DNA from: a virus | Strand: one strand, 5' to 3' | Virus record (IMG/VR): IMGVR_UViG_3300031344_000005 | Coordinates: 1 to 64,000 of that record | Length of the DNA: 64,000 nucleotides | Shown here: positions 3,400 to 40,820 of the stretch, piece after piece | Position numbering within the stretch: position 1 is the first letter of the stretch | Layout: each line of letters opens with the position of its first letter | Notes under the pieces: model-generated | Database searches by the model: none | What the model was told of the DNA's origin: nothing | What the model saw: only the letters and a program-made list of their open reading frames with translations | Made by a program: the position numbers and the translations under genes

Positions 3400-3615
3400 T
3401 TGAAATGCTTTCGACTTCTGCGGCTCATTCTCGGCATTAGCCAGGAGACCGTGGCCAAGGAGCTGGGCATCACCACTATGGCGCTGAACAACTACGAAGC
3501 GGGCCGGCGGTTCCCGAGCCGCTACTTGTGCAAGAAAATGGACGATGGGTTGATCGAGTTGATTGACCGGCGGGCTCTCGCTGCACTCGCGGAGCGGCGC
3601 AGTGGGAAGGCGTGA
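3400..3615 (+). CDS. XRE/Cro-type helix-turn-helix regulator
   Basis: LR..LGISQETVAKELGITTMALNNYEAGRRFP matches the HTH_XRE pattern. Confidence 0.85.
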   Translation: MKCFRLLRLILGISQETVAKELGITTMALNNYEAGRRFPSRYLCKKMDDGLIELIDRRALAALAERRSGKA

Positions 3616-3619
3616 GGCC

Positions 3620-4378
3620 GTGGCTACATTGGTCACGCGAGCCCAGCGGTCGAGAAGGAAGGGTGCGCCGGACTGCCTGCGCGACTCCAAGACACAGGCT
3701 ATCGCGGATGAGGCGGCCGAGCGGGCGGTAGCGGCCCCGCCGCCGTTGCCCCCCGAAGACGAGCCGGAGGGCGCGACCCTCACACTGGAGCAGGAGCGCG
3801 CGAAGGCGAAGCGCGAGGAAATCGAGAAAGACCCTGGGGTCATGGGCCGGCCATCCGTGCGGCTGTTCCGCATGGTGATGGCGACCGAGTCGCTCAAGGA
3901 CATCTTTGGCAATCCGCTAAAGGACAAGAATGGCCAAGTCTCGACGATGGTGATGGAGGACCAGGTCACCTACGCGGCAGTCGCGGCGGCCGTGAACCCG
4001 GCGCACCCGAAGCAGTTCGAGTTCGCGCAGATGATTTTTCAGTACCTACGCGACAAGCCACGCGAGTCCATCGCGTTGACGGGCGAGAACGGCGGGCCCA
4101 TTCGGTCGGTGGTCGAAGCCGAGTCGCTGACCCCCGAAGAGATGGCGGCGCGATTCGTACGGGCGGCCCGCATCGCCCAGGAGATCATGGCGGCCGAGGC
4201 GGCGCCGCCGAAGGCCATCGAGGCGGTGGAAGTCGGCGCGCAGCCCGCGGTGGCCGTTGTGCCGCAGCCCGGGCAAGTCGCGATCGAGGCCATGCCGGCG
4301 CCCGTGCTGTCCAGTGTTCCGATGCCAGCGGTGCAGCACCCGGCGTTCGTCCAGACGGGCGCGATTCCGAGGAAGTAG
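3620..4378 (+). CDS. Putative terminase small subunit
   Basis: IALTGENGGPI tail motif typical of TerS-like proteins; upstream of TerL; start codon uncertain. Confidence 0.5.
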   Translation: MATLVTRAQRSRRKGAPDCLRDSKTQAIADEAAERAVAAPPPLPPEDEPEGATLTLEQERAKAKREEIEKDPGVMGRPSVRLFRMVMATESLKDIFGNPLKDKNGQVSTMVMEDQVTYAAVAAAVNPAHPKQFEFAQMIFQYLRDKPRESIALTGENGGPIRSVVEAESLTPEEMAARFVRAARIAQEIMAAEAAPPKAIEAVEVGAQPAVAVVPQPGQVAIEAMPAPVLSSVPMPAVQHPAFVQTGAIPRK

Positions 4379-4563
4379 CGTCGGCGCTTGTCCTCACGCT
4401 GGCTGCGTCTTTGGCGGTTCGGGCGGCTCGTGTGGCGTGAAGTGAAACACGGCCATCCCGCGCGGTCCCACGTGGACGACGTACAGCAGCAGGCCCGGCC
4501 ACGTGACTTCGGCCCAGGGGCCGGCCGACCAGGCGGTCATGGCGGCGAGGTCGTGCGGTGGTT

Positions 4564-4803
4564 TTAGTTTGCCTCGCATGTCGGCACTGCCTCCCGCGCG
4601 ACATACCAGCAGCGGTCACGCGCTCGCTTGAACACGCGCCAGCCTGGCCCCATGGATGCGGCTTTGCGTTCGGCCTGAGTTGCGTTGGCGTAGCTAAGAG
4701 GCCAATCGTCGCCGTCTTTGGCGAGCACCATTTGCCCACAGCGCAGGCGGTACATGGAAACGACGGTCACGCGCGCACCTCCTCGAACGTGGCGTCTTCG
4801 CAT
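4564..4803 (-). CDS. Hypothetical protein (start uncertain)
   Basis: ORF chained to the upstream minus-strand gene; GAGG before an internal GTG. Confidence 0.45.
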   Translation of the reverse strand: MRRRHVRGGARVTVVSMYRLRCGQMVLAKDGDDWPLSYANATQAERKAASMGPGWRVFKRARDRCWYVAREAVPTCEAN

Positions 4804-5012
4804 TCCGCCTGCGCCAGTAGGATTCTGGCTCCTGCCATGGCGAGGTATCGCATGGATTCATGGAGCGGATTCGCGATTTCATCGACGCGGCGATCCTGGT
4901 AGACCGCTCCGACGCGCTTCAGTAGCTTTTCGAGTACGCGAAAAATGGCCTTCAATTCGGCCGCCTGCTCCCTGGTCTGCTTTTCTGCTGCGCTTGCGTT
5001 ATTCATGGTCAT
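4767..5012 (-). CDS. Hypothetical protein
   Basis: AAAGGAA RBS before ATG; helical sequence. Confidence 0.6.
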   Translation of the reverse strand: MTMNNASAAEKQTREQAAELKAIFRVLEKLLKRVGAVYQDRRVDEIANPLHESMRYLAMAGARILLAQAECEDATFEEVRA

Positions 5013-5156
5013 TTCCTTTGCAGGTTCGGTGCCAGCTACCCGACAACTTCGGCCATCGTCAGGCCCGGACAGGACCGCGTCTCATGCGTAAGCTTGTATC
5101 CCTGCTGAGTCAGCAGTGCAGCGGCTAGGCTGGCAGTCTCAGCGACAACTGCGTGC

Positions 5157-5357
5157 CTACTTCGTCGGCCGGAATCCCTTGCATTCGCGCTGCACTCCCT
5201 CGATCATGTCGTCCACAATGTGCGGCGCCTCTGCGGTGTGCTGCCCGAGCGTGAGCCCGCAGCGCGCGCAAACGCGGTCCCACTGCCCGTCATAGCTATA
5301 GCGGCCCGAGCTGCGTTCCCTGGTTTGCGTCTGCCGTCCCGTCGTCGAAGTTGCCAT
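5157..5357 (-). CDS. Small Cys/His protein
   Basis: ATG at 5357 lies 13 nt downstream of a sigma54 -12 GC; CARC....H motif. Confidence 0.6.
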   Translation of the reverse strand: MATSTTGRQTQTRERSSGRYSYDGQWDRVCARCGLTLGQHTAEAPHIVDDMIEGVQRECKGFRPTK

Positions 5358-5369
5358 GACTATAGCTAA

Positions 5370-5386
5370 AGCAACGCGCGTGCCAG
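5370..5386 (-). promoter_or_regulatory. Sigma54 (-24/-12) promoter
   Basis: Minus strand CTGGCACGCGCGTTGCT matches TGGCACG-N4-TTGCW; GG-N10-GC. Confidence 0.8.
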
Positions 5387-5426
5387 GCGGACGACCACGC
5401 GGCCAAAGGTCATGACGCAGGCCAGT

Positions 5427-5550
5427 CTCAGGAATCTGAGGCGGTTTCTGGCTACACCGCGCAATGAAATCGAGAAAGGCTAACACTTGCGCGCAGTTAG
5501 CAGTCTCAGAAATCTGAGGATGAGCAACGCGCTAACCTCAGAAATCTGAG
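5427..5550. repeat. Three copies of palindrome CTCAG(G/A)AATCTGAG, putative activator/operator sites
   Basis: Copies at 5427-5440, 5505-5518 and 5537-5550 between divergent sigma54 promoters. Confidence 0.8.
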
Positions 5551-5602
5551 AGTGGACGGTGCGGCAATTGGCGCCAGTCCACGGCCAAGCGGCGCGCATG
5601 GC

Positions 5603-5619
5603 CTGGCATGGCGCCTGCA
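5603..5619 (+). promoter_or_regulatory. Sigma54 promoter
   Basis: CTGGCATGGCGCCTGCA, GG-N10-GC, ATG 13 nt after GC. Confidence 0.75.
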
Positions 5620-5631
5620 ATAGGTCCAGGT

Positions 5632-5949
5632 ATGTCAAATCAAATCGCCCAGACCATTGCAGACCAGATCGGACGCCGCGCCATGGTGATGATCGGCGCC
5701 AAGGACCTGCTTGCCGGTGACAACTACCTCAGCATGCACGTCGGACGCGGCCCGCGCGGCGCTACGCACGTGCGCGTGGTTCTGGAGCCCGACGACACGT
5801 ACACGGTTGAAAGCATCGCCTGCCGGCACGTGCGGCACAACGGTATCCCCGAGCTAACCCGCAAGGTCATCGCCAGCACCTCGGACATCTACGCCGAGCA
5901 ACTGTGCCAGGCGATTGAAACCGTGACCGGACTCTACACCAGCCTGTAG
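5632..5949 (+). CDS. Hypothetical phage protein
   Basis: Follows a sigma54 motif; IAQTIADQIG...DDTYTV...IETVTGLYTSL resembles small phage early proteins. Confidence 0.7.
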   Translation: MSNQIAQTIADQIGRRAMVMIGAKDLLAGDNYLSMHVGRGPRGATHVRVVLEPDDTYTVESIACRHVRHNGIPELTRKVIASTSDIYAEQLCQAIETVTGLYTSL

Positions 5950-5963
5950 GCACGCAACCTGCA
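5947..5963 (+). promoter_or_regulatory. Sigma54 promoter
   Basis: TAGGCACGCAACCTGCA, GG-N10-GC, ATG 14 nt after GC. Confidence 0.65.
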
Positions 5964-5976
5964 AGGACTTAGGATC

Positions 5977-6489
5977 ATGACCACCACATTCAACCCCGGA
6001 CAGACCTACAGCGCCAGCATGATCTGTGACCACAATTGCATTGTGTCAATTACGGTTGCGAAACGCACTGCGAAATTTCTGACCACGACCGACGGCAAGC
6101 GCCTCGGCATTTCGGTCTATGACGACGCTGAGCAGATCTACCCTGACGGACACTACAGCATGTGTACGGTCATCAGCGCTACCGCGCCGGCGGTTATCCT
6201 GACTGACTGGCAGCGTGCCGCTCAGCGCAAGACCGAAGTCGAGGCAGCCAAGGCAAGCGCGCCAGTGGTCACGCCGTCAATCACGCCAGCGCTTCGCCTT
6301 GCGGTTGAGGCTGGCTTTGTGAGCCGGTGCTCAATCGTCCCTGTCAAGTGCTCGTGTGGTCACACCATGCTGCGCCTTATGCGCGATACCACGCGGACCA
6401 CGTCAAGCTGTCCCTGCGAAGTGTGCCGCGGCGACCTGACCCAAGCCGACGCCGACGCGCATAACCTGGAGGTGCTGAGGCACGGCTGA
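5977..6489 (+). CDS. Hypothetical protein with C-terminal zinc ribbon
   Basis: CSCG...CPCEVC; follows a sigma54 motif. Confidence 0.65.
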   Translation: MTTTFNPGQTYSASMICDHNCIVSITVAKRTAKFLTTTDGKRLGISVYDDAEQIYPDGHYSMCTVISATAPAVILTDWQRAAQRKTEVEAAKASAPVVTPSITPALRLAVEAGFVSRCSIVPVKCSCGHTMLRLMRDTTRTTSSCPCEVCRGDLTQADADAHNLEVLRHG

Positions 6490-6519
6490 CCCCTGCCACG
6501 CCGGCAGAGTGAGACGGAT

Positions 6520-6536
6520 TAGGCACAAGACGTGCG
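6520..6536 (+). promoter_or_regulatory. Sigma54-like promoter
   Basis: TAGGCACAAGACGTGCG, GG-N10-GC, upstream of the ASCH gene. Confidence 0.55.
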
Positions 6537-6552
6537 ATGGAATAGGAAGCAA

Positions 6553-7029
6553 ATGGAAACAACAATCCGACAGTTTGGCCGACCGTGGATGGCTGTAACC
6601 ATGAAGTGCCTAAGCGTGCGGCAGCCGTGGGCCTGGGCCATCATCCACGCGGGCAAGGATGTGGAAAATCGCACATGGGCGACTAGCTATCGCGGGTTGC
6701 TGGCGATTCACGCCGGCAAGGGCTGCACGCGCGCCGAATATGACGCCGCCGCCGTCGAGATAGAGCGGATCACTGGCAGGCGTCCGCCGCCGCTGTCCGA
6801 GTTGCCGCGCGGTTGTGTGGTCGGCATGGTGGAGATGAACGACTGCGTAACCAGCGGAGAGACCGAAAACGACTGGGCACAGGACGGCTACTGCTGGTGG
6901 ATGCTCACCAATGCGCGGGCGTGCAACCCCGCAGTCACGCGTGGTCATCTAGGGCTGTTTGAGGTAACCACGGAGCTTCTCTTCCCCAACGTAGCGGTCA
7001 TCGCGGGCGCAGCCGAGACTTTCGGCTAG
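6553..7029 (+). CDS. ASCH domain protein (start 6553 or 6601)
   Basis: LSVRQPWAWAI..GKDVENRTW...YRG.LAIHA ASCH signature. Confidence 0.88.
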   Translation: METTIRQFGRPWMAVTMKCLSVRQPWAWAIIHAGKDVENRTWATSYRGLLAIHAGKGCTRAEYDAAAVEIERITGRRPPPLSELPRGCVVGMVEMNDCVTSGETENDWAQDGYCWWMLTNARACNPAVTRGHLGLFEVTTELLFPNVAVIAGAAETFG

Positions 7030-7686
7030 CCGCTCGCGCGCCTCGCGACTTTCGCAGATTACAACCAAGTAGCGTTCCGTATCTTCGGCGGTCGCGTCGG
7101 CATGGCCCTTGGCGCGCATCTGTTGGCGAGCCTCTTTCGCCTTCGCTTCCGCGACGGCTCGTTCTTCAGGCGTTGGCTCTGGCTTCTTTCGAGTGGCGGC
7201 GATGTCTTGCAACTCCCCGATGGCGTTTTGCATTTCGGGAGCCTGCGATTCCAGGGAAAAGAGTCCTGTCCCGTCGAACATGATCTCCAGTTCCGTCACG
7301 TCGAAGCCTGTCTGATCTAGGTTAAGTTCTGGCAGCATGGGGGCCAACAAGGCGAGATCCCACTCTCCCATGGCTGCGGCGTTGTTCAGAAAGAGCCCCT
7401 GCTCTTTCTCTTGCTTCTCGGTTAGGTTGACCACCGAAACATCTAGCATGTAGTCCGTCGATCCCTCCAGTGCGTCGAGGCACGCAAGGCGTTGGTGGCC
7501 ACCGACAAGGTGGCCCGTCTTCTGGTTGAAGATGACCGGCTCAAGCATCCCAACGCGCTTGAGGTTGGCCTGGAGCTTTTTCTTTGCGTGAGGGGAAATC
7601 TTGCGCGGGTTGACCGGAAGGCCCACGATGGAATCGCGCGAGACTCTCTCAACCTTGAACTTCTGAAACTTGGTCAGGTCGCTCAT
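6949..7686 (-). CDS. ParB N-terminal (ParB/Sulfiredoxin-like) domain protein
   Basis: NPRKI...L..NLKRVG.LEPVIFN..TGHLVGGHQRL motif; GGAGG RBS. Confidence 0.85.
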   Translation of the reverse strand: MSDLTKFQKFKVERVSRDSIVGLPVNPRKISPHAKKKLQANLKRVGMLEPVIFNQKTGHLVGGHQRLACLDALEGSTDYMLDVSVVNLTEKQEKEQGLFLNNAAAMGEWDLALLAPMLPELNLDQTGFDVTELEIMFDGTGLFSLESQAPEMQNAIGELQDIAATRKKPEPTPEERAVAEAKAKEARQQMRAKGHADATAEDTERYLVVICESREARERLAESLGCARDDRYVGEEKLRGYLKQP

Positions 7687-8359
7687 GGATCATGGCCTCC
7701 GCAAAGGGGAACGAGCGAAGAAGGGTTTGCCAGTCCTCGGAGTGGTTGCATTTCAGCCAACGCAGACACGGGGTGATGAGGGCGAATCCTCCCATGCGTG
7801 AGTTCTCGTCGCCAAAGCGGATTGGCGTAGGAATCTTGCGTGCCCGCATGTAGCCGAACACATCGGCATCGACCCAGTCCCAGATGGGCGCCACTTTTCC
7901 CCCCTCGGCTCCGCGGTCATGGATGCCGTCGACCTTGCGATGATGCAGCCGCCTCGTCATGGAGTCGGTTGCACGTTCGCCGTAGGCGAACCAGGAGATG
8001 CCCGTCTTCTTGGTCAGGTAGTGCTCCACGTCCCGCAGCTTCAGCTCGGGTAACTTCTCGGCCGCATCTACATGTGGCCGGAGCACGGCATACTTGGCGA
8101 TGCGAGCGAGATCCCAGTGCGGGACGAAGTGCAGCGGAACATTCGCGCGTTTGGCCGCTTGCTCGACTTGGTCCTCTACGCAGCGGAGACCCCGACACAA
8201 ATACATGAAGTAGGCTTCGACATGAGAGAAGGCACGGCAGCAAATATCCAACGTGACCAGGCTGTCCTTGCCGCCCGATAGCCCAACAAGAAGCGAGCCG
8301 CCCGACATCTGAGATGCACGGGCGGCTCGCTCTGAAGCTGTCGCCAGCTTCGATGGCAT
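7649..8359 (-). CDS. PAPS-reductase-like PP-loop (adenine nucleotide alpha hydrolase) enzyme
   Basis: SGGKDS PP-loop, YGERATDS..RR, PIWDW motifs. Confidence 0.85.
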   Translation of the reverse strand: MPSKLATASERAARASQMSGGSLLVGLSGGKDSLVTLDICCRAFSHVEAYFMYLCRGLRCVEDQVEQAAKRANVPLHFVPHWDLARIAKYAVLRPHVDAAEKLPELKLRDVEHYLTKKTGISWFAYGERATDSMTRRLHHRKVDGIHDRGAEGGKVAPIWDWVDADVFGYMRARKIPTPIRFGDENSRMGGFALITPCLRWLKCNHSEDWQTLLRSFPFAEAMIHERPDQVSEVQG

Positions 8360-8361
8360 TG

Positions 8362-8424
8362 CTAGACGCGGCCCGAACCGCCGCCGCCTTTGCCCTTCTT
8401 GCCCTTCGCTGCTTTCTTTGCCAT
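8362..8424 (-). CDS. 20-aa Lys/Gly-rich peptide MAKKAAKGKKGKGGGGSGRV
   Basis: AGGAG RBS 6 nt before ATG; TAG stop 2 nt before the PP-loop ATG; below ORF-track cutoff. Confidence 0.7.
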   Translation of the reverse strand: MAKKAAKGKKGKGGGGSGRV

Positions 8425-8502
8425 GGTGTTCTCCTACTTACTGCCCCTGTAGACCGGGGCCGTCACGTGACGCGAAGTATGTTACCATAGTCGTGGCACG
8501 AG

Positions 8503-9978
8503 ATGCTAGCTTCCGCCGAACTCCACGACCTCGAAGGCGCCTACCGCACCGCTGATGAGACGCTGGTGCGGCTGGCCCGCCGGTCGATGAAGGCGTTTTT
8601 CAGCTACGTGATGCGGGACGAGGAGACCGGCGCACCCGTCGAGTTCGCGCCGATACATGAAGACTGGCACCGGCTGGCCGACCAGTACGACCGGCTGATG
8701 CTGTGGAGCTTCATGGAGTCAGGCAAAACCTTCAGCCTTAGCGTCGCCCGCACGCTCTGGGAGTTGGGGCGCGACCCGACGTTGCGCTTCGCCATCGTCA
8801 GCAACACCAGCGGCATGGCGGTCAAGATCGCGAATCAGATCGGAAAGTACATCACGCAGTCGGCGGAACTGCACCGGGTGTTTCCACACCTGGAGCCTGA
8901 CCCCAGCATGCCGTGGAACAGCGAGCAGCTCACGGTCAAGCGGCCGACGTTGTCCAAGGACCCGTCGGTCAACACTCTCGGAATCGGCAGTAACACACAG
9001 GGCGCCCGCATCGATCGGGCCATCCTGGACGACGTGCTGAACCGCGAAAACACGCGCACCCAGTACATGCGGGACGAGTCGCAGGACTGGTACCTGAAGA
9101 CCATCCCGGGCCGCATGACGGAACGTGGCCGCATCCTCGGAGTCGGCAACGCTTGGAACCCGGACGACCTCTACCACCGGCTGGTGAAAAACCCGCGCTG
9201 GAAGGGCTACAAGTTCCCCATCCTGAAGCCCGACGGCAGCAGCGCGTGGCCCGAAGTCTGGCCGCTCGACCGCATCGAACGGCGCCGCCAGGAGTTGGGC
9301 CCGCTCGAATCCATGAGCCAATTGATGTGCCAGCCCATCGACGACGCCATGGCGCGGTTCAAGCGGGAGTGGATCGAGGCTTGCCTGCGGCGTGGCGAGG
9401 GCAAGTCGCCCGTCTACGCCCTGCGAGGCATGCCGACGGGCCTGCGGGTCTTCTGCGGCGTCGACTTGGCGGTGGGGCTGAAGAAGAGCCACGATCTGAC
9501 GGCGTTCTTCGTCCTGGCTGTTCACCCGAATGGCGACCGCGAGGTACTGTGGGTCGAAGGTGCGCGCCTCCTCGCGACCGACATCATGGGCAAGGTGCGG
9601 GAGTTGCGGGATCGCTTTCACCCCATCTTCGTGATCGAGAACGTGGCGGCGCAGGACTACCTAGTGCAGCTCCTCCAGGGAAGCACGTCGATTCCGATCA
9701 TTCCCTTCGCTACGGGCAAGAACAAAGCTGACCCGACATTCGGGCTCGAAGCGATGAGCGCCGAGTTCGCAGCCGGCAAGTGGATAATCCCGAACCATGG
9801 CGGCGTCTGTGAGCCCGAGATCCAGGCATGGGTCGACGAAATGCTCAGCTACAGCCCGTCGGCACACTCGGGCGACAGGTTGATGAGTTCGTGGTTCGCC
9901 AAGGAAGGCGAGCGCCTCGGGGCCGTCGCGCCCGCTCCGCCCACCGGGATCATGCCGCTCCGTTTGAATCGCTGGTGA
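8503..9978 (+). CDS. terL: Terminase large subunit
   Basis: Walker A-like ESGKT, Walker B AILDD, GNAW coupling motif, RNase H-like GVDLA and C-terminal D; followed by portal. Confidence 0.93.
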   Translation: MLASAELHDLEGAYRTADETLVRLARRSMKAFFSYVMRDEETGAPVEFAPIHEDWHRLADQYDRLMLWSFMESGKTFSLSVARTLWELGRDPTLRFAIVSNTSGMAVKIANQIGKYITQSAELHRVFPHLEPDPSMPWNSEQLTVKRPTLSKDPSVNTLGIGSNTQGARIDRAILDDVLNRENTRTQYMRDESQDWYLKTIPGRMTERGRILGVGNAWNPDDLYHRLVKNPRWKGYKFPILKPDGSSAWPEVWPLDRIERRRQELGPLESMSQLMCQPIDDAMARFKREWIEACLRRGEGKSPVYALRGMPTGLRVFCGVDLAVGLKKSHDLTAFFVLAVHPNGDREVLWVEGARLLATDIMGKVRELRDRFHPIFVIENVAAQDYLVQLLQGSTSIPIIPFATGKNKADPTFGLEAMSAEFAAGKWIIPNHGGVCEPEIQAWVDEMLSYSPSAHSGDRLMSSWFAKEGERLGAVAPAPPTGIMPLRLNRW

Positions 9979-13258: not shown

Positions 13259-13480
13259 ATGGCACCAGAAGCGCGTAACCCAGGCCACGTCGTTCGGCTG
13301 AGTGACGCAGCATACGAACAACTCCTCGCACTGCAGGAAGTTGTCGCGTCGCGGGGCTGGCAGGTGGTCGGCGTGAAGAGTGCCGAGCCGGCGACCCTGG
13401 CCGCCGTGCTTGGCATGGCTATCGCACAGGTGAGCGACATGGTGGCCGAGCTGACGGCAGAGAAGAAGGGAGAGGGCTGA
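13259..13480 (+). CDS. Small putative DNA-binding (ribbon-helix-helix-like) protein
   Basis: HVVRLSDAAYEQL strand-helix pattern; own promoter. Confidence 0.55.
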   Translation: MAPEARNPGHVVRLSDAAYEQLLALQEVVASRGWQVVGVKSAEPATLAAVLGMAIAQVSDMVAELTAEKKGEG

Positions 13481-13483
13481 ACG

Positions 13484-13966
13484 ATGCCGATCATGCACAC
13501 CAATATCTCGGGGGACTTCTGGAACTGCGACTGCAAGAATTACCCGAACCCCATCGAGTTTTCCTTCTGCCCACTCTGCGGCAAGAAGCGGCCCGAACCA
13601 CTGCCCGCAATCGGCGATAAGGTCTGGGTCAAGGCGCAGGTCAAGGAAGTTGTCGAGCCGATTCCTGGTGGTGTGCTCACTCAGCCAGGTTTCCGTCTCT
13701 TCGATCACGCGGGCCTGTTCGTGCCAGCGGACTACGGCGAGACGTGGATGCGGGTGGATTCCGGTGGAGAAGCGCCGGCGGGGCACATACCGCTGCTCAA
13801 GGGGGCCCGCGCGGGCCCCCTTGAGCAGCTGCCACTCATCGAGCAGTATCCCGGACTCCGGGAAATCTTAGAGGCCAACGTCGCTGGGTTGCTGGGCGAC
13901 GACGATGGGCCGACGATGCGAGACAGGCTGGCTAAGAACATCATCGACCTCATCTTCGGGGGCTAA
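13484..13966 (+). CDS. Hypothetical protein with N-terminal zinc ribbon
   Basis: WNCDC...FCPLCG. Confidence 0.6.
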   Translation: MPIMHTNISGDFWNCDCKNYPNPIEFSFCPLCGKKRPEPLPAIGDKVWVKAQVKEVVEPIPGGVLTQPGFRLFDHAGLFVPADYGETWMRVDSGGEAPAGHIPLLKGARAGPLEQLPLIEQYPGLREILEANVAGLLGDDDGPTMRDRLAKNIIDLIFGG

Positions 13967-14855: not shown

Positions 14856-15067
14856 AGCGATGATCATCGAAGCCATTATTCTCGGGTACGCCATCTATCG
14901 AAGCCGCAATCCAGTCTGTTGGCGGATTGTTTGGAGTGGTGACTGTGTCTCATGTTCGGACACGTTCCGCCCGGTGGATCCTGACCGACTACTGAGACTT
15001 GCGGGGCTGGGTCTGCCATGCCGACTACCTTGGCCGATTTGACCCCACTTGGTGTACAATAGCCACC

Positions 15068-15529
15068 ATGTCTCTCGCCTCCGTCCAGTTCGCCAAGACC
15101 CAGCAGAAGCCACAGCAGCCCCAGCCCGACAAGCCCAAGCTGAACGCACAGGAACGCCTGGCCCTCAAGAAGATGCGCCGAGAAGCCAAGGCGGCGGGGG
15201 CCACGCTGCAGAACAACGGTGAGGGAGGACTCGCACCGTCACTTGTGCTTGGGATCATGCGCCGGGACCATTTTCGTTGCGTGAACGAGGACTGTCCCAC
15301 TCCCAAGAAGAATTTGTCCCTTGACCACATCAGTGGCCACCCGCAGGAGATTGCGGCGGATCCGGAAGCCCGTCACAGGAAAGACCTGAAGCGTGGAATC
15401 AAACTCGGGCACGTGGCCAAGATGGAAGCCCTGAGAACTATTTGCGCACAATGCCATGATCGTTGCCACGACCGCGAGCGTGAGATAGACGCCGGCGAGA
15501 AACCGCAACCCATGCGAGGCAAAGAGTAA
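15068..15529 (+). CDS. HNH endonuclease-like protein
   Basis: RRDHFRC....C....LSLDHI...LRTICAQCH; TACAAT 7 nt before ATG. Confidence 0.7.
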   Translation: MSLASVQFAKTQQKPQQPQPDKPKLNAQERLALKKMRREAKAAGATLQNNGEGGLAPSLVLGIMRRDHFRCVNEDCPTPKKNLSLDHISGHPQEIAADPEARHRKDLKRGIKLGHVAKMEALRTICAQCHDRCHDREREIDAGEKPQPMRGKE

Positions 15530-16752: not shown

Positions 16753-17671
16753 GCAGGTGGTGAGCGCCCATCGGCGCACACTAGACAGACTGATCGAAAA
16801 AGGCTCAGTCGAGCGCTTGCGCAACGTCTACGAGAAAGCGTCCGCCGAGGTCCTGGCGAAGCTCGAACGGTTGGGCCGCGGGTCTACCAGCTTCACGGCG
16901 CATCACCTCCGCATGGCGCTCGCGCAGTTGAAGGCCGGCCAGCTCTACATTGACGATGCGATGATCGGCGAGCTGAATGCTGCCACACGCGAGGCCCAGG
17001 TCGAAAGCCTGCACATGTTGGTACGCGACTACAAGCGCCTTGGAAAGCACTTCACCGGCCACGCGCCAGTCTTGCCCATCGAGGAGGCGGCGCGGTTCGC
17101 CGGGGTCATCGACAAGAGCCGCAGCTCGCTCCTGCGCCAGCACGCGACGAGCATCAAGCGCTACGGCGCGGCCGTCATCGACCAGACCCAGGAGGCGATG
17201 GGCGTGTCGCTGGCAAGCGGAGAAACGCTTGACGGCACTATCGGGCGTGTCCACAAGGTCATCGGCGGGCAGTTCTTCGCGGCGGAACGGATCGCGCGAA
17301 CGGAAACCTGCTATGGCGCGAACGTCGCCCATTCCGACGGCATCAAGGAAATCGCCAAGGAAGACCCCGCGATCCTGCAGCAGTGGTGCGAATTTTGCGC
17401 GCCAGACGGGCATCCGCTCGACGATCGCGTGGCAGTGGACAGCATCGCAATGCACGGCCAGGTGACGGACCCTGGCGGCGAATTCACGATGCCAGCGACC
17501 GCGCCCTTTCCGGACGCCAAAGGCCGCACGAAGGTTGACGAGTCCCTGGTGGGCAAGTCGTGGGCCGTGCCGCCGTGCCGGCCGAATGGGCGCGAGACAG
17601 TACTGCCCTGGCGCAAGGACTGGGGCTCGCCCGGCTGGCGCTACAAGGGCGGCCGACGTGTTCCCGCCTAG
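16733..17671 (+). CDS. Head morphogenesis/minor capsid protein (SPP1 gp7/Mu F-like)
   Basis: AERIARTET, DDRV...HGQ, PPCRPNGRE motifs. Confidence 0.8.
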   Translation: MAESLYEQVVSAHRRTLDRLIEKGSVERLRNVYEKASAEVLAKLERLGRGSTSFTAHHLRMALAQLKAGQLYIDDAMIGELNAATREAQVESLHMLVRDYKRLGKHFTGHAPVLPIEEAARFAGVIDKSRSSLLRQHATSIKRYGAAVIDQTQEAMGVSLASGETLDGTIGRVHKVIGGQFFAAERIARTETCYGANVAHSDGIKEIAKEDPAILQQWCEFCAPDGHPLDDRVAVDSIAMHGQVTDPGGEFTMPATAPFPDAKGRTKVDESLVGKSWAVPPCRPNGRETVLPWRKDWGSPGWRYKGGRRVPA

Positions 17672-18963
17672 CCCCGCAGGTGGTAATAGATCCCGTTCTC
17701 AGGCGTCTCGCCGGGCGGGAAGTCTTGCCGAATCGTCACTGCTCCCGCCTTCGTCGCCGAGAACATCGAGTAGTCCCGGAACGCCCGCCCCAGCATCTTG
17801 CGGGTGAGCGCCGGCTCCGCGTCCAGGAAGCCCTTGCCCGAATTGAGGTGTAGCAGGGATGTGAAGTAATCCTCGTAGGCAGCGCCGACGCGCTCGAAGC
17901 TGTTGTTCTTCTCGACCCACTGGCGGCAGACAAACGGATCGATCGGTGGCACGCCGTCCGTCTGTCCCAACAGGTTTCGCGCCGCCCAAACCGACTCCTC
18001 AAACGTACTGACCCGCCAGCCGGTGTAGCCGTGAGCCACGGTGTCGGTGTAGCCACCAAAGTCTGTCGAGATGACGGGGCAGCCAGACGCCGCGGCCTCA
18101 AGCGCGACCGCGCCAAGCGGTTCGACGTAGCGGCTTAGGCTGAACAGGCCCTTCGCTTTCTGCATGAGTTCGCGGCGGACCTTCGCCGACGTCATGCCGA
18201 TGTACCTCGCGCCCGCTGGCCACTCAGCGACGAAGCTGCTGGCGTCACCGCGTCCTGTGAGGAAGATGGGGGTCTTGAGTTCGCGAGCAACTTGGATCGC
18301 CCAGCGGACGCCCTTGGGCTCCAGCATGCGGGTCTGAACCAGAAAGTAGTTCAGCTTCTCGGCCGTCGGCAGCGCTGGGCCGAACAGGTCGAAGTTGAGC
18401 GGTAGCGGTATCACTTGGTGCCACCACTTGTCTCCTCCGAAGTTCTTGTCAAACCCTTCGTGGAAATGCCGCCAAGCGTGCGATAGGTACACCCGGAAAG
18501 GCGCATACGCGTACGGCGAACCGATGCCGCATTCGACGACGATTTGAGGCACGTCCTTGGTACAGCCCTGGTGGCCCCACAGGCAAGACACGATGGACGA
18601 GTATGGCGCGCCACCGCGTTCGAGCAGAATTTTGCGGACGTTTGCTTCGTACAGGTCCCACTGCTGGGAGTAGGCGTGCTCGCGGCACAGGATGAAGGGC
18701 GCTTCGGGTTTCTTCCAGCCATAGAGGATCCGCCACCAGTCCTCCGTCATGGCGTCGACGTGTTCGACGCCTTCGGGCGGCCGGCTGCCGGGCATACCGA
18801 TGTGGATAACCTCATGGGACGGCTTGCCGTCGGCGTCGCGGCGGTCGGCCATCATCTTGGCGAAGTACCAAACCTGCTCAGTGAATGGACACAGGTTGAC
18901 CAGGTCCTCGTCGCGTGGGTCCGTGGTCTGAGTATGTGGGAAACCCACACAGATGATCCTCAA
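17668..18963 (-). CDS. Glycosyltransferase family 4 (GT-B)
   Basis: R..PKG, EPLGAVALEAAASGCPVISTDFGG..DTV.HG.TG; TTG start after GGAGG. Confidence 0.88.
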   Translation of the reverse strand: MRIICVGFPHTQTTDPRDEDLVNLCPFTEQVWYFAKMMADRRDADGKPSHEVIHIGMPGSRPPEGVEHVDAMTEDWWRILYGWKKPEAPFILCREHAYSQQWDLYEANVRKILLERGGAPYSSIVSCLWGHQGCTKDVPQIVVECGIGSPYAYAPFRVYLSHAWRHFHEGFDKNFGGDKWWHQVIPLPLNFDLFGPALPTAEKLNYFLVQTRMLEPKGVRWAIQVARELKTPIFLTGRGDASSFVAEWPAGARYIGMTSAKVRRELMQKAKGLFSLSRYVEPLGAVALEAAASGCPVISTDFGGYTDTVAHGYTGWRVSTFEESVWAARNLLGQTDGVPPIDPFVCRQWVEKNNSFERVGAAYEDYFTSLLHLNSGKGFLDAEPALTRKMLGRAFRDYSMFSATKAGAVTIRQDFPPGETPENGIYYHLRG

Positions 18964-19637
18964 GATTGCACCTCCAATTCCACGTGTTTCCACGTCTTGC
19001 GAGCGAGGATGTCGTAGATATTTCTAACACACACGCCGAAGTCGGCGGCAAGTTGAGGCACGGTCCATCCTTGGGCGCGAAGCTGAAAGACGGAGCGCAC
19101 CTTCTCATCAGTCAGTTTGGATCTACTGTGCCCTTCTCCACGTGGGCGAGATTCCGGATGCAAGCGTGAGCCGCTGTGTTCACCACGCGCCATTCGCTCT
19201 GGGTGCAAGTGGGACCAATGCGCATCGCCGCGCGCTACACGTTCCGGGTGCCTATGTGACCAGTGCTCGTCGCCATAAGAATGTGGCGGATCACTTTGTC
19301 TGCCCTTCGCCATCATGTCCCTGGTATTGTCCTTCATCGTTCCGAGAAACAAGTGCTCATCGGCAACACAGGGCGGATTGTCGCACTTATGGGGGACGTG
19401 CAGGCCATCGGGGATTGGGCCGTGAGCCAACTCCCATGCTACGCGGTGGGCACTTTCCCCACTGCCAGCGCGTCCCAGACGGCTGCTGAGCCTACCGTAC
19501 CCATGATAATCCAGCGCGGCCTGCCATTCTAGGCAAGGCGTTGTCATGCCCGGTCTGATGAAATCGGCAAGCTTGGCCTTCGCGAGGAATCGCTGCTTAA
19601 GTCGGTCGAGTACGAAGATGCGCATGGTTAGCTCCAT
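18960..19637 (-). CDS. HNH homing endonuclease
   Basis: AHRVAWELAHGPIPDGLHV.HKCDNPPCV...HLFLGT..DN; C-terminal HTH. Confidence 0.88.
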   Translation of the reverse strand: MELTMRIFVLDRLKQRFLAKAKLADFIRPGMTTPCLEWQAALDYHGYGRLSSRLGRAGSGESAHRVAWELAHGPIPDGLHVPHKCDNPPCVADEHLFLGTMKDNTRDMMAKGRQSDPPHSYGDEHWSHRHPERVARGDAHWSHLHPERMARGEHSGSRLHPESRPRGEGHSRSKLTDEKVRSVFQLRAQGWTVPQLAADFGVCVRNIYDILARKTWKHVELEVQS

Positions 19638-19844
19638 TCAATGGCTGCCGTCGTAGCCCGGCGGACGCCCCTGCCATGGCGGTGCGGGCGGGAACATTGG
19701 CTCTGGTAGCTTCTCGCCCGGCTCCATCATCCGCACCTCGACCACGTTGTAGTCCAGTTCGACCGCTCGCTGCTGCGCGCGCGCCGGGTCCTCCCATGCC
19801 GAGTCGAGGTGCAGAACGTTGCGGACGATGAAGATGGTTTTCAT
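19638..19844 (-). CDS. Hypothetical protein
   Basis: ATGA-coupled between FkbM and HNH genes. Confidence 0.5.
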   Translation of the reverse strand: MKTIFIVRNVLHLDSAWEDPARAQQRAVELDYNVVEVRMMEPGEKLPEPMFPPAPPWQGRPPGYDGSH

Positions 19845-20557
19845 GGTCTGCACACAATGTCGTAGCCGTCTCTCCCGTCGCTCGGGTTGAACGGCTGTCC
19901 CGTGCGGATGTCCTTGCATTCCGCCGAGTAGCCAAGCCAGCGCAGCTCCGTCTCCAAGTCGCGGATCGTGAAGCCTGAGAGACCTAGTCCCCAGGAATTG
20001 ACTTCGACGACCATGATGGGCCGGCAGCGCAGAATTGTCCCACGCGCGCCTCGCAGGGCCAACACCTCGTGGCCTTCGATGTCCCACTTGATGAGCGCTG
20101 GCGACAGACCGAAGCTGTCGAGTGTCACCACCTCGACCGGCACGTCACCGTCTGCGTCGATGTGGCTGGCCCCGGCGTTTTCCTCACGCTTGATCTTGAG
20201 CGAAGCCACGCGATCTGACAGGCCGCAGTTGTGGAGCACGACGTTCGGCAGGTCCGCACAGTTCTGCCGGAGGCACTCGAAGGGCTCAACTTGCGGCTCG
20301 AAGGCATGCACGGTGCCGGCCTTCGTCGCATAGGACGAGGCGTGGTCTCCAAGGCTGGCGCCTGCGTCGATGACGGTCGATCCTTCCGGTATCAGGTCGA
20401 GCACCAGCGGAATCAGTTTGATCGGTGGGCACGACAGATCTGCGCCGAGACAGTGGTGCTGTTCGATCCATCGCGACAGGTGCGTGTCGTCCTTCAGAAC
20501 TGCGATCGAGCGTTCGCCCGGAAGACCGGGGATGATGCCGGGCGTGTGGATAATCAT
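19841..20557 (-). CDS. FkbM-family SAM methyltransferase
   Basis: VIDAGASLG, VHAFEP, LIKWDIEGHE..ALRGA motifs. Confidence 0.88.
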   Translation of the reverse strand: MIIHTPGIIPGLPGERSIAVLKDDTHLSRWIEQHHCLGADLSCPPIKLIPLVLDLIPEGSTVIDAGASLGDHASSYATKAGTVHAFEPQVEPFECLRQNCADLPNVVLHNCGLSDRVASLKIKREENAGASHIDADGDVPVEVVTLDSFGLSPALIKWDIEGHEVLALRGARGTILRCRPIMVVEVNSWGLGLSGFTIRDLETELRWLGYSAECKDIRTGQPFNPSDGRDGYDIVCRP

Positions 20558-20585
20558 ACTCTGCCCCTCGGATTGGCCAAAGAGA

Positions 20586-20801
20586 TCAAGGTGTCTTCCC
20601 CTGTTGGTCTCTCGCCGCGATCTGATGGGCAAGTAGCAGCGCGGTCCCTCGGTGGATTCGCAATCCGCCCGCTGCGCGTTCGAGGGCCGGCCTGCTCAGA
20701 CCCAAGTGCCGCGCGGCTTGGCATGTGCCCTGTGCTTCGATGAGGGCCTTCAGGCGGGTCTGATGCTCTGGGCTCATCTCGGTGTCGTTCTTTTGCTTCA
20801 T
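20586..20801 (-). CDS. Small HTH protein
   Basis: QAARHLGLSRPALERAAGG; TGCTATGAT upstream. Confidence 0.55.
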   Translation of the reverse strand: MKQKNDTEMSPEHQTRLKALIEAQGTCQAARHLGLSRPALERAAGGLRIHRGTALLLAHQIAARDQQGKTP

Positions 20802-39845: not shown

Positions 39846-39849
<4 letters not shown>

Positions 39850-40820
39850 CCGAAAAGATCAGTGCAGTCATCTGCACCTACAACGAAGAGGACAACATCG
39901 CGGCCTGCATCGAGTCGGTTGCAGGCGTCGACGAGGTCGTGGTGAGTGACGACTATTCGGAGGACTCGACAAGGGAGATTGCCGAACGCCTCGGCGCCAA
40001 GGTATTGTTGCGCAGCAAGGAAGGCGGTGGTTCACGGCTCGGCGGTGACATCATCACGGAGACGCATGTCAACGACTTCCACGAGCGCTTCGGCTGGGCG
40101 CCATCATTCCACGCTGGCGACCGCATTTGCAACGGCGCCGACAAGGCCCGTGAGGCCGTGGGGTTCGCCCAGGGGGACTGGATCATTAGTCCAGATGCGG
40201 ACGAGCGTGTCACCTGGAACTTACCAGCGTTGCGGGAATTGCTTCCGGTCTGTGATCAGATCGTGCACGAGTTCGTCCACTCACACGACGCTGAAGGGAA
40301 GCCTCACCGAGTAAGCACTATCTCAAAACTATTTCGCAAATCCATGACCGGGTTTGGAGGGCGCACGCACACTTGCATGCTGCCGGCGGGGAGGATCCTC
40401 CAGACGAACCTGCTTCGCATTGACCACTACCAAAAACCCCACGACCAGCCGCACGTGCTGCCAACGATGGAGTACAGCGTGCTGACGGACGACGATCAAC
40501 GAAGTCGGTTTTATCTCGGGCGCGAATATTACTTCTATCGTCACTACGACAGGGCGCTCGTTCTCTTGGATCTGTACCTCAAGAACGCCACCGGACACAT
40601 CCCAGAGATTGCACAGGCACGGTTGTACGCGGCTCATTGCTACTGGGAGGATGGCTCGGGACGTGGCGATGAAGCGCGGCGGAGCTGCATGGAAGCGTTG
40701 ATCCTCAACCCCGAGCACCGGGACGCACTGGCATTCATGGCCGAGCTGTATCACGAGCCGTGGAAACACAAATGGCTGCACCTCGCTAGCGTGGCCACAG
40801 ACGAGGATATTCTATTTTGA
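39846..40820 (+). CDS. GT2 glycosyltransferase with TPR-like C-terminus
   Basis: [28 protein letters not shown]; [13 protein letters not shown]-like helices. Confidence 0.88.

Follow-up and report, generated by a model that had tools for sequence, protein, structure and literature searches.

Unless fired by a specific, ATP-driven activator, a sigma-54 promoter remains silent; described examples include enhancer-dependent promoters with upstream activator sites, such as glnAp2 with NtrC and nifH with NifA. The locus described here, in an uncultured rhizosphere myovirus, resembles these systems in its GG and GC elements, which lie 10 nt apart and fit the extended consensus, as well as in its dyad sites ~75-200 bp upstream and in a control region common to divergent candidate promoters. 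However, promoters of the glnAp2 and nifH type have ordinary leaders and a ribosome site, while here only 12-13 nt separate the -12 element from the ATG; in addition, the carrier is a phage without an activator, and two more sites are found at internal junctions between genes. Leaderless phage mRNA is known from a sigma-70 promoter, as lambda cI is transcribed from PRM. Like cI, the present locus has a small phage gene beside a divergent control region that contains a dyad site in three copies, and an ATG at or next to the 5' end (predicted here) without a Shine-Dalgarno core. Yet the elements are of the -24/-12 and not the -35/-10 kind, and the dyads lie upstream of the candidate promoters rather than over them. 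Promoters of T7-type RNA polymerases also place a repeated motif directly 5' of consecutive small genes, but they are conserved over their full 20-30 nt, whereas here only the sigma-54 positions are. Finally, phage moron cassettes are likewise discrete insertions in a conserved operon, with lower third-position G+C and their own control region, the genes here being ParB-like, PAPS-reductase-like and ASCH-like. Unlike in those cassettes, control by sigma-54 and a host activator is proposed here, which was not found described in the literature searched. As that search turned up no account of a sigma-54 promoter lying directly against a start codon, and none of such promoters in a phage, the mechanism proposed below is without findable precedent, which counts against it.

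The window, that is the whole 64-kb stretch of DNA analysed, derives from an 82,815-bp IMG/VR virus record with a CheckV completeness of 100%. The initial annotation spoke of a phage island; the whole window is phage, as part of a complete virus record, and what can be kept of the term is that the motifs fall within an insertion of 4,054 bp in comparison to close relatives. Comparison by blastn places the borders of this cassette at window position 4377, equivalent to position 1054 of the relative L008, and at window position 8432, equivalent to L008 position 1089; in L008 and in a second relative (L007) the same place holds 34 bp only, as also found by tblastx. The gene on the left border is 82.5% identical in nucleotide sequence to its L008 copy, which lies directly 5' of the large terminase gene, and has no family match in Pfam or PHROG. 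The third-position G+C of the cassette is lower than that of the structural genes. Contigs of four sequencing runs contained identical pieces only and no cassette-free form, an Rfam search of positions 4000-9000 gave no match, and there was no RNA run among the listed sequencing runs containing this sequence. The genes of the region are as follows.

Positions 3563-4378, plus strand: presumed small terminase subunit gene, adjoining the cassette on the left (label from position only)
Positions 4378-8431, no strand: accessory cassette of 4,054 bp, between the small-terminase-like and large terminase genes
Positions 4767-5006, minus strand: m0 gene, 79-aa helical orphan protein
Positions 5157-5357, minus strand: m1 gene, 66 aa, of a small family in which Cys30, Cys33, His40 and Cys59 are invariant; Shine-Dalgarno core absent
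Positions 5632-5949, plus strand: m2 gene, 105 aa, phrog_9437 (function unknown; E 4.4e-19); no Shine-Dalgarno core
Positions 5977-6489, plus strand: m3 gene, 170 aa, conserved N-terminal domain and Cys-rich C-terminus
Positions 6553-7029, plus strand: ASCH-like gene, 158 aa, phrog_3193 (E 5.4e-43)
Positions 6949-7686, minus strand: ParB-like nuclease-domain gene, phrog_9353 (E 2.9e-51), with further matches to several ParB-like PHROGs; convergent with the rightward genes
Positions 7649-8359, minus strand: PAPS-reductase-like gene, PF01507 (E 4.8e-9) and phrog_424
Positions 8503-9978, plus strand: large terminase subunit gene, adjoining the cassette on the right, phrog_38 (E 1.7e-67)

Among the cassette proteins, no DNA-binding or RNA-binding family was detected. 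The 66-aa Cys/His protein has 63 cluster representatives at E<=1e-3 and no Pfam or PDB relative, and its structure model reaches a mean pLDDT of 55. The 79-aa protein found only itself in a collection of 5.8 billion proteins and had no Pfam or PHROG match. Relatives of the m2-gene protein were found in 24 phage records, the majority from phages of Rhizobium, Agrobacterium, Rhodobacter and Ralstonia, and the m3-gene protein has 11 relatives besides itself. The ASCH assignment of the 158-aa protein stays below threshold in Pfam (E 0.0015; 19.7 bits, where 21.2 are required), its other basis being a DNA match of 57 nt to a gene whose product carries the annotation 'ACSH domain' protein. Scores from the protein atlas were below 0.9 and serve as leads only.

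Candidate sites were scored using a sigma-54 weight matrix, the frequencies of which were set by hand and not taken from a library. In five of them, named m0 to m4, the GG and GC doublets are exactly 10 nt apart.

Positions 5019-5034, minus strand: m0, TGGCACCGAACCTGCA, 13.6 bits; 12 nt before the ATG at 5006, predicted +1 at ~5008, AAGGAA between motif and ATG
Positions 5370-5385, minus strand: m1, TGGCACGCGCGTTGCT, 16.0 bits, full match to the sigma-54 -24/-12 consensus; 12 nt before the ATG at 5357, predicted +1 at ~5359
Positions 5604-5619, plus strand: m2, TGGCATGGCGCCTGCA, 14.6 bits; 12 nt before the ATG at 5632, predicted +1 at ~5630
Positions 5948-5963, plus strand: m3, AGGCACGCAACCTGCA, 12.4 bits; 13 nt before the ATG at 5977, predicted +1 at ~5974, AAGGA and TAGGA between motif and ATG; first bases overlapping the TAG stop of the upstream gene
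Positions 6521-6536, plus strand: m4, AGGCACAAGACGTGCG, 7.0 bits; not supported

The four 16-mers quoted in the initial annotation (m1 to m4) are correct in coordinates and strand, and so are their spacings of 13, 13, 14 and 17 nt if the count runs from the final base of the motif to the A of the start codon; the intervening sequence is then 12, 12, 13 and 16 nt long. m0 was absent from that annotation. Its description of four sigma54-type promoters is borne out as to the motifs of m1, m2 and m3, which are good matches, and not for the site at 6521. Because 81 sites in the genome already score at least 8 bits, m4 is indistinguishable from noise; moreover, its predicted start point falls within an AGGAAG Shine-Dalgarno sequence, located 4 nt before the ATG at 6553, and the homologous ASCH-like gene of locus L022 has no m4-like motif upstream. 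The extended sigma-54 consensus is YTGGCACG-N4-TTGCW. It is fitted by m0-m3 and not by m4, and m1, matching every specified position of TGGCACG-N4-TTGCW, has the top score on both strands of the whole 82.8-kb record. A pyrimidine precedes the first motif base in all four of m0-m3, and the -12 element takes the CTGC form in m0, m2 and m3. Both the spacer and the 12 nt following the motif vary among m0-m3, so that the four are not duplicates of a single sequence; the positions common to them are those that sigma-54 reads.

The start codons next to these sites are all ATG and lie 2-3 nt past the predicted +1 for m0-m3, the 5' ends being themselves predicted. For the m2 gene, the ATG at 5632 is preferred over that at 5608, as homologues align from query residues 1-8; the ATG at 5977 is the sole start of the m3 gene after an in-frame stop, and the same MTT opens 6 of its 11 homologues; and the 79-aa protein in the large collection fits a start of the m0 gene at 5006. 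Thus, as far as homologous and deposited proteins can place them, the start codons of the m0, m2 and m3 genes are independently supported, in favor of the RpoN reading. That the genes are near-leaderless, as had been claimed, would fit the m1 and m2 genes, where a GGAG, GAGG or AGGA core is absent at -17 to -4, and would fit less well for m0 and m3, which carry AAGGA before the ATG and, like m4, have such a core. A transcript from the predicted +1 of m0 or m3 would exclude these AAGGA-type sites, which counts against the RpoN reading, as does the finding that 51 of 82 genes lack a Shine-Dalgarno core at the first ATG by the same crude test. The mRNAs would be near-leaderless only if transcription starts ~12 nt after the GC, and the AAGGA-type sites inside the motif-ATG gaps of m0 and m3 argue that translation also proceeds from longer transcripts.

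m0-m3 point outward from a 274-bp divergent intergenic region, the inner pair being m1 and m2, and this region contains three copies of a 14-bp palindrome.

Positions 5427-5440, plus strand: palindrome copy 1, CTCAGGAATCTGAG, centered at -74 (m1 start) and -196 (m2 start)
Positions 5505-5518, plus strand: palindrome copy 2, CTCAGAAATCTGAG, centered at -152 (m1) and -118 (m2)
Positions 5537-5550, plus strand: palindrome copy 3, CTCAGAAATCTGAG, centered at -184 (m1) and -86 (m2)

A fourth copy was found nowhere in the 82.8 kb with two mismatches allowed. As the palindromes lie 74-196 bp upstream of the predicted m1 and m2 starts and overlap neither motif, the layout has the geometry of activator sites and not that of an operator. 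Across 401 sampled alphaproteobacterial genomes the palindrome was present as a single copy in six and as two copies in none, which is chance level and counts against the RpoN reading, and its sequence returned one irrelevant primer only from the literature. A search of viral contigs for the tandem-palindrome pattern led to two unrelated coding repeats in DNA of 40% G+C, which were set aside.

The consensus fit, the outward orientation, the fixed distance to the ATG and the palindromes at enhancer-like distances make sigma-54 promoters the best available explanation of m0-m3, as far as sequence comparison can take it. Accepting m0-m3 as genuine RpoN promoters that are fired by a host activator and give near-leaderless mRNAs is given a probability of about 0.45. 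Observed are the motifs with their statistics, orientation and spacing, the palindromes, the insertion and the lack of an activator, sigma factor or RNA polymerase among the phage genes; we infer that RpoN binds, where transcription starts, what protein binds the palindrome and to what effect, and that translation is leaderless. A dimeric or oligomeric activator would bind the three palindromes in the 274-bp control region, contact closed RpoN-polymerase complexes through DNA looping and fire both operons. It would most likely be an enhancer-binding protein of the host, since the phage encodes none. Since the -12 element stops 12-13 nt short of the ATG, a transcript would start either on the initiation codon or 2-3 nt ahead of it. 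For the first gene on each side, which encodes the 66-aa Cys/His protein in one direction and the 105-aa phrog_9437 protein in the other, translation would proceed from a leaderless mRNA. The second gene in each direction would have an internal promoter, m0 or m3, and would keep its AAGGA-type ribosome site for read-through transcripts.

Alternatively, and this is unlikely though worth weighing, m0-m3 could be sites for some other phage or cassette factor, either a DNA regulator or a translational repressor acting on mRNA. Here, the likeness to sigma-54 promoters would be coincidental, and the palindromes would be operators of a cassette regulator such as the 66-aa Cys/His protein. The word CCTGCAA, common to three of the sites, exceeds what sigma-54 needs, and the ribosome-binding sequences after m0 and m3 would place the motif inside a longer mRNA leader. 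Similar words also turn up elsewhere: a 21-bp palindrome at 67603-67623, probably an operator, scores 15-16 bits on both strands; a recurrent palindrome of ~38 bp in viral contigs includes motif-like words; and at locus L474 such a word lies within a 30-nt repeat that begins TTGGCACG, is conserved over its full length and looks like a phage RNA polymerase promoter. These words, together with the small proteins encoded by the cassette, the conserved Cys/His family among them, speak for another factor. On the other hand, the common positions match those of the sigma-54 consensus one-for-one, down to the 10-nt spacing and the preceding pyrimidine, while the spacer varies; the sites are not palindromic; they have no common or unusually stable RNA fold (z-scores 1.24, -0.02, 0.23 and -0.73); and the cassette proteins belong to no detected nucleic acid-binding family, all of which argues against another factor.

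The RpoN reading requires an activator from outside the phage. The claim that no activator is encoded in the window can be extended to the whole 82,815-bp record, in which a search with PF00158 gave 0 matches, so that the suggested search for an enhancer-binding protein in the rest of the phage was likewise empty, which counts against the RpoN reading. A 241-aa AAA protein (81216-81941) was considered and rejected, as it matches PF00004 only and not PF00158, shows by eye neither a GAFTGA loop nor a DNA-binding domain, and adjoins a helicase gene. Neither Sigma54_DBD nor Sigma70_r2 matched in the record, nor did the T7-type RNA polymerase family PF00940, for which the control genomes gave no positive either. 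As no sigma factor or T7-type polymerase was found in the record, the polymerase of the host must be used. Since the phage encodes no activator, it is reasonable to suppose that it ties the effectors to a host signalling circuit, as had been proposed. The myxobacterial context suggested for this circuit is unsupported: the G+C content is 0.58-0.65, the sequence occurs in rhizosphere metagenomes, and the following searches pointed to no host. Searching species genomes with the terminase gave no match and no prophage relatives, a tRNA scan gave no tRNA gene, and none of the isolated phages is close, with terminase and capsid-like proteins 22-27% identical and the helicase ~35%. The DnaB-like helicase was examined as a host clue and matched 80 loci at 33-41% identity, mostly in Comamonadaceae, which were too distant and too dependent on the seed word to name a host.

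The sigma-54 holoenzyme forms stable closed complexes that are silent without an activator. It could therefore be speculated, with a small chance of being right, that the holoenzyme binds m0-m3 as roadblocks or insulators and not as promoters, either shielding the cassette from late read-through of the terminase operon or keeping the cassette genes silent. This would agree with the lack of an activator in the record, with the cassette splitting two genes that are adjacent in relatives, and with each site lying directly over a ribosome-binding and start region. However, all four sites point into the downstream gene, which is not required of a roadblock, the three palindromes upstream of m1 and m2 are given no role, and no other promoter of the cassette genes was found.

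It is equally improbable that the sites arose by chance in G+C-rich DNA, sharpened by post hoc choice of ATG, pattern and sites. Taken singly, they are unexceptional, as the median best score in 200 dinucleotide shuffles was 15.2 bits, and the other matches of at least 15 bits, at 13411 and 56903, fall inside coding sequence; the former (15.7 bits) was considered as a late promoter and set aside, since tblastx to a relative marks the sequence as coding. The pattern GGCAYNNNNNYTGCW (GGCAY-N5-YTGCW) has exactly four matches in the 64-kb window, namely m0-m3, against 1.62 expected, and four or more were reached in 7 of 100 shuffles; it was fitted after the sites were seen, which, together with the hand-set matrix, counts against the RpoN reading, and the ATGs of m0 and m2 were also chosen after inspection. 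What argues against chance is the coincidence of several features, in that m0-m3 all fall inside a stretch of 945 bp (P 1.25e-5 in simulation for four random matches), point outward, and in three cases share a 12-nt spacing: extending the pattern by N12 and ATG gave three matches against 0.01 expected, and three were reached in none of 100 shuffles. The independent support for the start codons points in the same direction. Among 995 ATGs opening at least 50 codons, matches of at least 12 bits numbered six at offsets 12-15 and six at the other 76 offsets, an excess with a binomial probability of 1.1e-5, or 1e-3 without two palindrome-derived sites. A related, G+C-matched 76-kb phage showed nothing similar, with 0 of 17 matches of at least 10 bits at 12-15 nt before an ATG. 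Thus, the comparison of motif density with shuffles called for initially gave ordinary single scores, while clustering and ATG spacing exceeded chance.

Surveys of relatives gave a mixed picture. The cassette is absent from close relatives, and none of 28 loci of large terminase relatives has a comparable motif cluster. In viral contigs, the m2-gene protein found six distant loci, none with the motif, the m3-gene protein none, and the ParB-like protein four distant loci. None of 27 metagenomic loci with m3-gene homologues carries such a motif, which counts against the RpoN reading; several instead have TATAAT-type boxes, ~25-nt leaders and a GGAG site. The distant m2- and m3-gene homologues belong to unrelated phages. 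Among the matches listed, viral contigs hold at least 120 TGGCACG-N4-TTGCW sites with an ATG 6-24 nt downstream, and 23 of 40 ORF-opening ATGs of this TTGC form are at gaps of 12-15, compared to 8 of 51 for a reversed-motif control (Fisher 3.3e-5). An in-frame stop at most 90 nt upstream was present for 14 of the 23 TTGC-form cases and 0 of the 8 controls, again among the matches listed. About half of the raw TTGC peak at gaps 12-13 derives from a palindromic element, the second arm of which (ATGCCA) provides the ATG and is not a start codon, and without these sites the raw peak among the matches listed is weak (P 0.016). The CTGC form, as in m0, m2 and m3, has no spacing preference among the matches listed (a gap of 12-15 for 7 of 55 ORF-opening ATGs, in no case preceded by an upstream stop), which favors chance and counts against the RpoN reading. 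The survey thus hints that the motif-against-ATG arrangement recurs in viral contigs for the canonical TTGC motif.

Ordinary sigma-70-type promoters overlapping or neighboring the motifs are very improbable drivers of these genes, as the only sigma-70 consensus site between 4300 and 8550, CTGGCA-16-TATAGT overlapping m1, compares to 0.9 expected by chance and has a -10 box ending 1 nt before the ATG, so that transcription would start inside the ORF, and nothing comparable lies upstream of m0, m2 or m3, even if m3-gene homologues in other phages do stand behind TATAAT-like boxes.

If m0-m3 are sigma-54 promoters, the cassette would be expressed only while a particular signalling protein of the host is active, providing a direct link from host physiology to phage accessory genes, and, with transcription starting on the start codon, enhancer-dependent initiation and leaderless translation, which are not known together, would be joined. 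A broader and doubtful proposal is that phages of many hosts carry an undescribed class of small regulator-like or accessory genes with canonical sigma-54 promoters set against the start codon, which would be leaderless and switched solely by an enhancer-binding protein of the host. The hint of recurrence makes the arrangement testable on cultured phage-host pairs. Should such a class exist, the phage would read the stress or signalling state of its host without a regulator of its own, and the present cassette would represent this class with four promoters and an enhancer of its own.

The phage record is 82,815 bp long (CheckV completeness 100%), the window being its first 64 kb, with a G+C content of 0.58–0.65; positions beyond 64,000 are record coordinates. 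Family matches identify large terminase, portal-like, baseplate J, DUF3383 sheath-like, Mtd/collagen fibre, and amidase genes in the window, and a YqaJ-type exonuclease, a DNA methylase, a DnaB-type helicase, and a Tad4-domain protein in the last 19 kb. This tailed-phage gene content marks a tailed phage genome rather than an island in a bacterial chromosome, and the "phage island" of the initial annotation thus gives way to a window that is phage throughout. The phage DNA occurs in rhizosphere metagenomes. No close isolated phage was found, terminase identity to isolated phages being at most about 24%, and searches with the terminase, helicase, and capsid-like protein named no host; the earlier guess of a myxobacterial host does not hold. 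The Tad4 domain (type I Thoeris inhibitor, PF25186, E 3.5e-29) lies in a 187-aa protein at 69607–70170. The structural module is interrupted by an opposite-strand block (17668–20632, minus) encoding a group-1 glycosyltransferase, an HNH endonuclease with a helix-turn-helix domain, and an FkbM methyltransferase, and a family-2 glycosyltransferase is found at 39846–40820. Also in the structural region (15030–15070), ATG 15068 lacks a Shine-Dalgarno core and has TACAAT 7 nt 5' of it, which may mark a sigma-70-type leaderless start.

In relatives at 82–83% nucleotide identity, a gene homologous to that at 3563–4378, the presumed small-terminase gene, is followed by 34 bp and then the large terminase gene. 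At the same point, the window carries an insertion of 4,054 bp (4378–8431), whose genes and motifs are as follows.

Genes and sigma-54-like motifs of the inserted cassette
4394–4579, minus: small ORF of the leftward set
4564–4803, minus: small ORF of the leftward set
4767–5006, minus: leftward set, 79-aa protein
5034–5019, minus: motif m0, upstream of ATG 5006
5157–5357, minus: leftward set, 66-aa Cys/His protein
5385–5370, minus: motif m1, upstream of ATG 5357
5604–5619, plus: motif m2, upstream of ATG 5632
5632–5949, plus: rightward set, 105-aa protein (phrog_9437)
5948–5963, plus: motif m3, upstream of ATG 5977
5977–6489, plus: rightward set, 170-aa protein
6521–6536, plus: motif m4
6553–7029, plus: rightward set, ASCH-like protein

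The rightward set converges on ParB-like and PAPS-reductase-like genes. Between the two sets lies an intergenic region of 274 bp, from which m1 and m2 are directed outward, while m0 and m3 sit at the next gene junction on each side, 351 and 344 bp farther out, each directed into the following gene. Just right of the insertion, 8432–8470 is conserved in relatives; it includes both a CCCC..GGGG hairpin and the palindrome CCGTCACGTGACGG, close to the 5' side of the large terminase gene, and may serve as a signal for late regulation or for packaging. The large terminase gene of three relatives itself contains an insertion of ~1.2 kb (L013 4571–5791, L011 2482–3702, and L012 1673–2893), which may be an intein, intron, or homing element; the window is uninterrupted at the corresponding point (9647–9652).

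The four 16-mers first reported, m1 to m4, are present in the sequence 13, 13, 14, and 17 nt upstream of their ATGs. Both strands of the whole record were scored with a sigma-54 weight matrix, its frequencies set by hand after the published consensus and its scores therefore rough. The top match of the genome is m1 (16.0 bits), followed within the cassette by m2 (14.6 bits), m0 (13.6 bits), which was missing from the initial list, and m3 (12.4 bits). As a promoter, m4 is rejected: it scores 7.0 bits when 81 sites in the record reach at least 8 bits, an AGGAAG ribosome site spans its predicted start point, and nothing similar lies upstream of the homologous gene in one relative. What m0–m3 have in common is a preceding pyrimidine, (T/A)GGCA(C/T), five bases, and then (T/C)TGC(A/T), which are the consensus positions, while they are unlike one another in the spacer and the twelve downstream bases. 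Two further sites were noted elsewhere. The site TGGCATGGCTATCGCA (13411–13426, 15.7 bits) lies 58 nt 5' of the gene at 13484, which has a strong Shine-Dalgarno sequence, and comparison with a relative places the site within coding sequence; CGGCACGCCAAATGCT (67949–67979; 4949–4979 of L035, a piece of the same record) scores 11.4 bits 12 nt 5' of the ATG of a 122-aa ORF, a second ATG lying 6 nt past the motif, as in m0.

Taken singly, the sites are unremarkable, since the best score per shuffle has a median of 15.2 bits (200 dinucleotide shuffles), and enrichment at 14 bits or more is only moderate genome-wide (6 sites against 1.84 expected). The arrangement of the set is exceptional in clustering and ATG spacing. 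The pattern GGCAY-N5-YTGCW matches the window exactly four times, at m0–m3 (1.62 expected; four or more in 7 of 100 shuffles), all within 945 bp (P = 1.25e-5 for four random matches), and followed by N12 and ATG it matches three times against 0.01 expected; having been written after inspection of the sites, this degenerate pattern somewhat inflates these figures. A test free of gene calls covered offsets 0–79 at all 995 ATGs opening at least 50 codons, and found six matches of at least 12 bits at offsets 12–15 and six at the other 76 offsets together. Two of the former six share one palindrome (67603–67623) as their source and do not count independently; leaving both out still gives a binomial P of 1e-3. 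We judge the cluster to be genuine, not a product of chance.

The intergenic region also contains a 14-bp palindrome, CTCAG(A/G)AATCTGAG, in three copies of like orientation, with no further copy in the whole record at two mismatches allowed. Measured to their centres, the copies are 74, 152, and 184 bp upstream of the predicted m1 start point; for m2, the corresponding upstream distances are 86, 118, and 196 bp. No copy overlaps either motif. Enhancer-dependent promoters are classically laid out in this way, with dyad sites upstream of divergent -24/-12 elements. Judged from sequence, the best explanation, with a probability of about 0.45, is that m0–m3 are four RpoN-type promoters of a mobile accessory cassette, for which the three palindromes would act as a common enhancer, and that they are placed for near-leaderless transcripts. 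Three of the sites first proposed as sigma-54 promoters, m1–m3, are thus best read in that way, and m4 is not.

The main rival, which we consider unlikely, is that the sites are recognized by some other sequence-specific factor and only resemble the consensus. In its favor, words like the motif also occur in the 21-bp palindrome TGGCTAGCAATTTGCAAGCCA (67603–67623), which reaches 15–16 bits on each strand when scored as a sigma-54 site and is centred in the 40 bp between divergent ATGs 67592 (minus) and 67633 (plus), within record positions 67590–67635 (L035 4590–4635). This palindrome is probably an operator, as the neighbouring 73-aa rightward protein weakly matches ribbon-helix-helix families (NikA-like, E 0.011; CopG, E 0.057). 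The sigma-54 reading is preferred because the shared positions are those of the consensus, the spacer and downstream bases vary, the palindromes are suitably laid out, and no phage sigma factor or polymerase was found: no sigma-54, sigma-70-family protein, or T7-type RNA polymerase was detected in the record, the T7-type search being run without a positive control. The same variation speaks against both duplication and full-length promoter conservation. Such conservation is seen in locus L474 (1–700, minus), where a ~30-nt repeat, TTGGCACG.ATCCTGCTG..TATA.GGT, lies directly 5' of consecutive small ORFs and looks like a phage RNA polymerase promoter beginning with sigma-54-like words; m0–m3, in contrast, share consensus positions only. 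Only one sigma-70-like site is present in the cassette; it overlaps m1, and transcription from it would begin inside the ORF.

Several results count against the sigma-54 reading. As first reported, the window encodes no activator, and a search of the whole record for PF00158 found none. A 241-aa AAA protein beside the helicase gene was considered for this role and discarded, as it matches PF00004 only. No relatives of the cassette were found with which to compare conservation of the GG and GC positions. None of the 27 loci encoding homologues of the 170-aa protein has a sigma-54-like motif; several have TATAAT-like boxes and leaders of ~25 nt. In unrelated metagenomic phages (L053–L056, L058, L061, and L067–L071), these homologues have a common leader with CCATCAACA behind a TATAAT-like box, pointing to an early transcript start conserved across the gene family.

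With the C of GC taken as -12, transcription from m1, m2, m0, and m3 is predicted to start at 5359, 5630, 5008, and 5974, that is, 2, 2, 2, and 3 nt before the ATGs, and transcripts would be near-leaderless. The start codons themselves are consistent with homologues: for the 105-aa protein, alignments begin at the first residues, the 170-aa family mostly has the same MTT start, with ATG 5977 the sole start after an in-frame stop, and homologues of the 66-aa protein are mostly 56–90 aa, arguing against a 109-aa upstream extension; the recorded start of the 79-aa protein is 5006. A GGAG/GAGG/AGGA core is absent from the first gene on each side (m1, m2) and present in the second genes (m0, m3), by a crude test that finds none at the first ATG in 51 of 82 genes. 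The pattern would suit leaderless translation of the first genes and dual use of the second ones. Also against the sigma-54 reading, the ribosome sites at m0 and m3 fall within the stretch predicted to be untranscribed.

A start-site mapping study of Sinorhizobium meliloti (PMC3616915) counts 171 mRNAs as leaderless and places RpoN-type motifs ahead of 112 start sites. Within the full text searched, which excludes subscription journals, no sigma-54 promoters are described in a phage genome and none abutting a start codon. In the parts consulted, a putative sigma-54-like protein of a Pectobacterium phage comes from a weak HHpred match (PMC7693777), RpoN motifs are mentioned in the host only (PMC8244752), and prophage genes are tied to activation of the RtcR regulon (PMC9879122), the last being a link between phage and enhancer-binding protein rather than a phage promoter.

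Viral contigs were sampled for TGGCACG-N4-TTGCW with an ATG 6–24 nt downstream, giving at least 120 sites. Among the 120 matches listed, 18 ATGs lie at gap 12 and 17 at gap 13, against ~6 at other gaps. About half of this raw peak is a palindromic element in which ATGCCA mirrors TGGCAT and the "ORFs" behind have only a few codons; with such elements removed, the peak is weak (P 0.016). One recurrent form of ~38 bp (TGGCACG-N4-TTGCW-N3-4-GCAA-N5-6-ATGCCA), found in viral contigs of 30–60% G+C within L154–L272 (e.g., L177, L268, L184, L246), has sigma-54-like motifs face to face on both strands, three copies lying within 170 nt in L177. The excess of ORF-opening ATGs persists: among the matches listed, 23 of 40 lie at gaps 12–15, compared with 8 of 51 for the reversed motif (Fisher 3.3e-5), and an in-frame stop is found in the 90 nt before 14 of the 23 and before 0 of the 8 controls. 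With CTGC instead of TTGC, the form of three of the four window sites, no preference is seen among the matches listed (7 of 55, none with an upstream stop), and the survey is no direct support for the CTGC sites of the window. Of four examples inspected, three look like true small-gene starts, namely those of a 201-aa protein near a genome end whose N-terminus is helix-turn-helix-like by eye, of an 83-aa gene from a divergent region in a complete phage of 56 kb, and of a 91-aa gene, while the fourth probably lies inside a gene; PF00158 was found in none of five such records. Overall, the survey hints at recurrence of the canonical motif immediately 5' of phage start codons.
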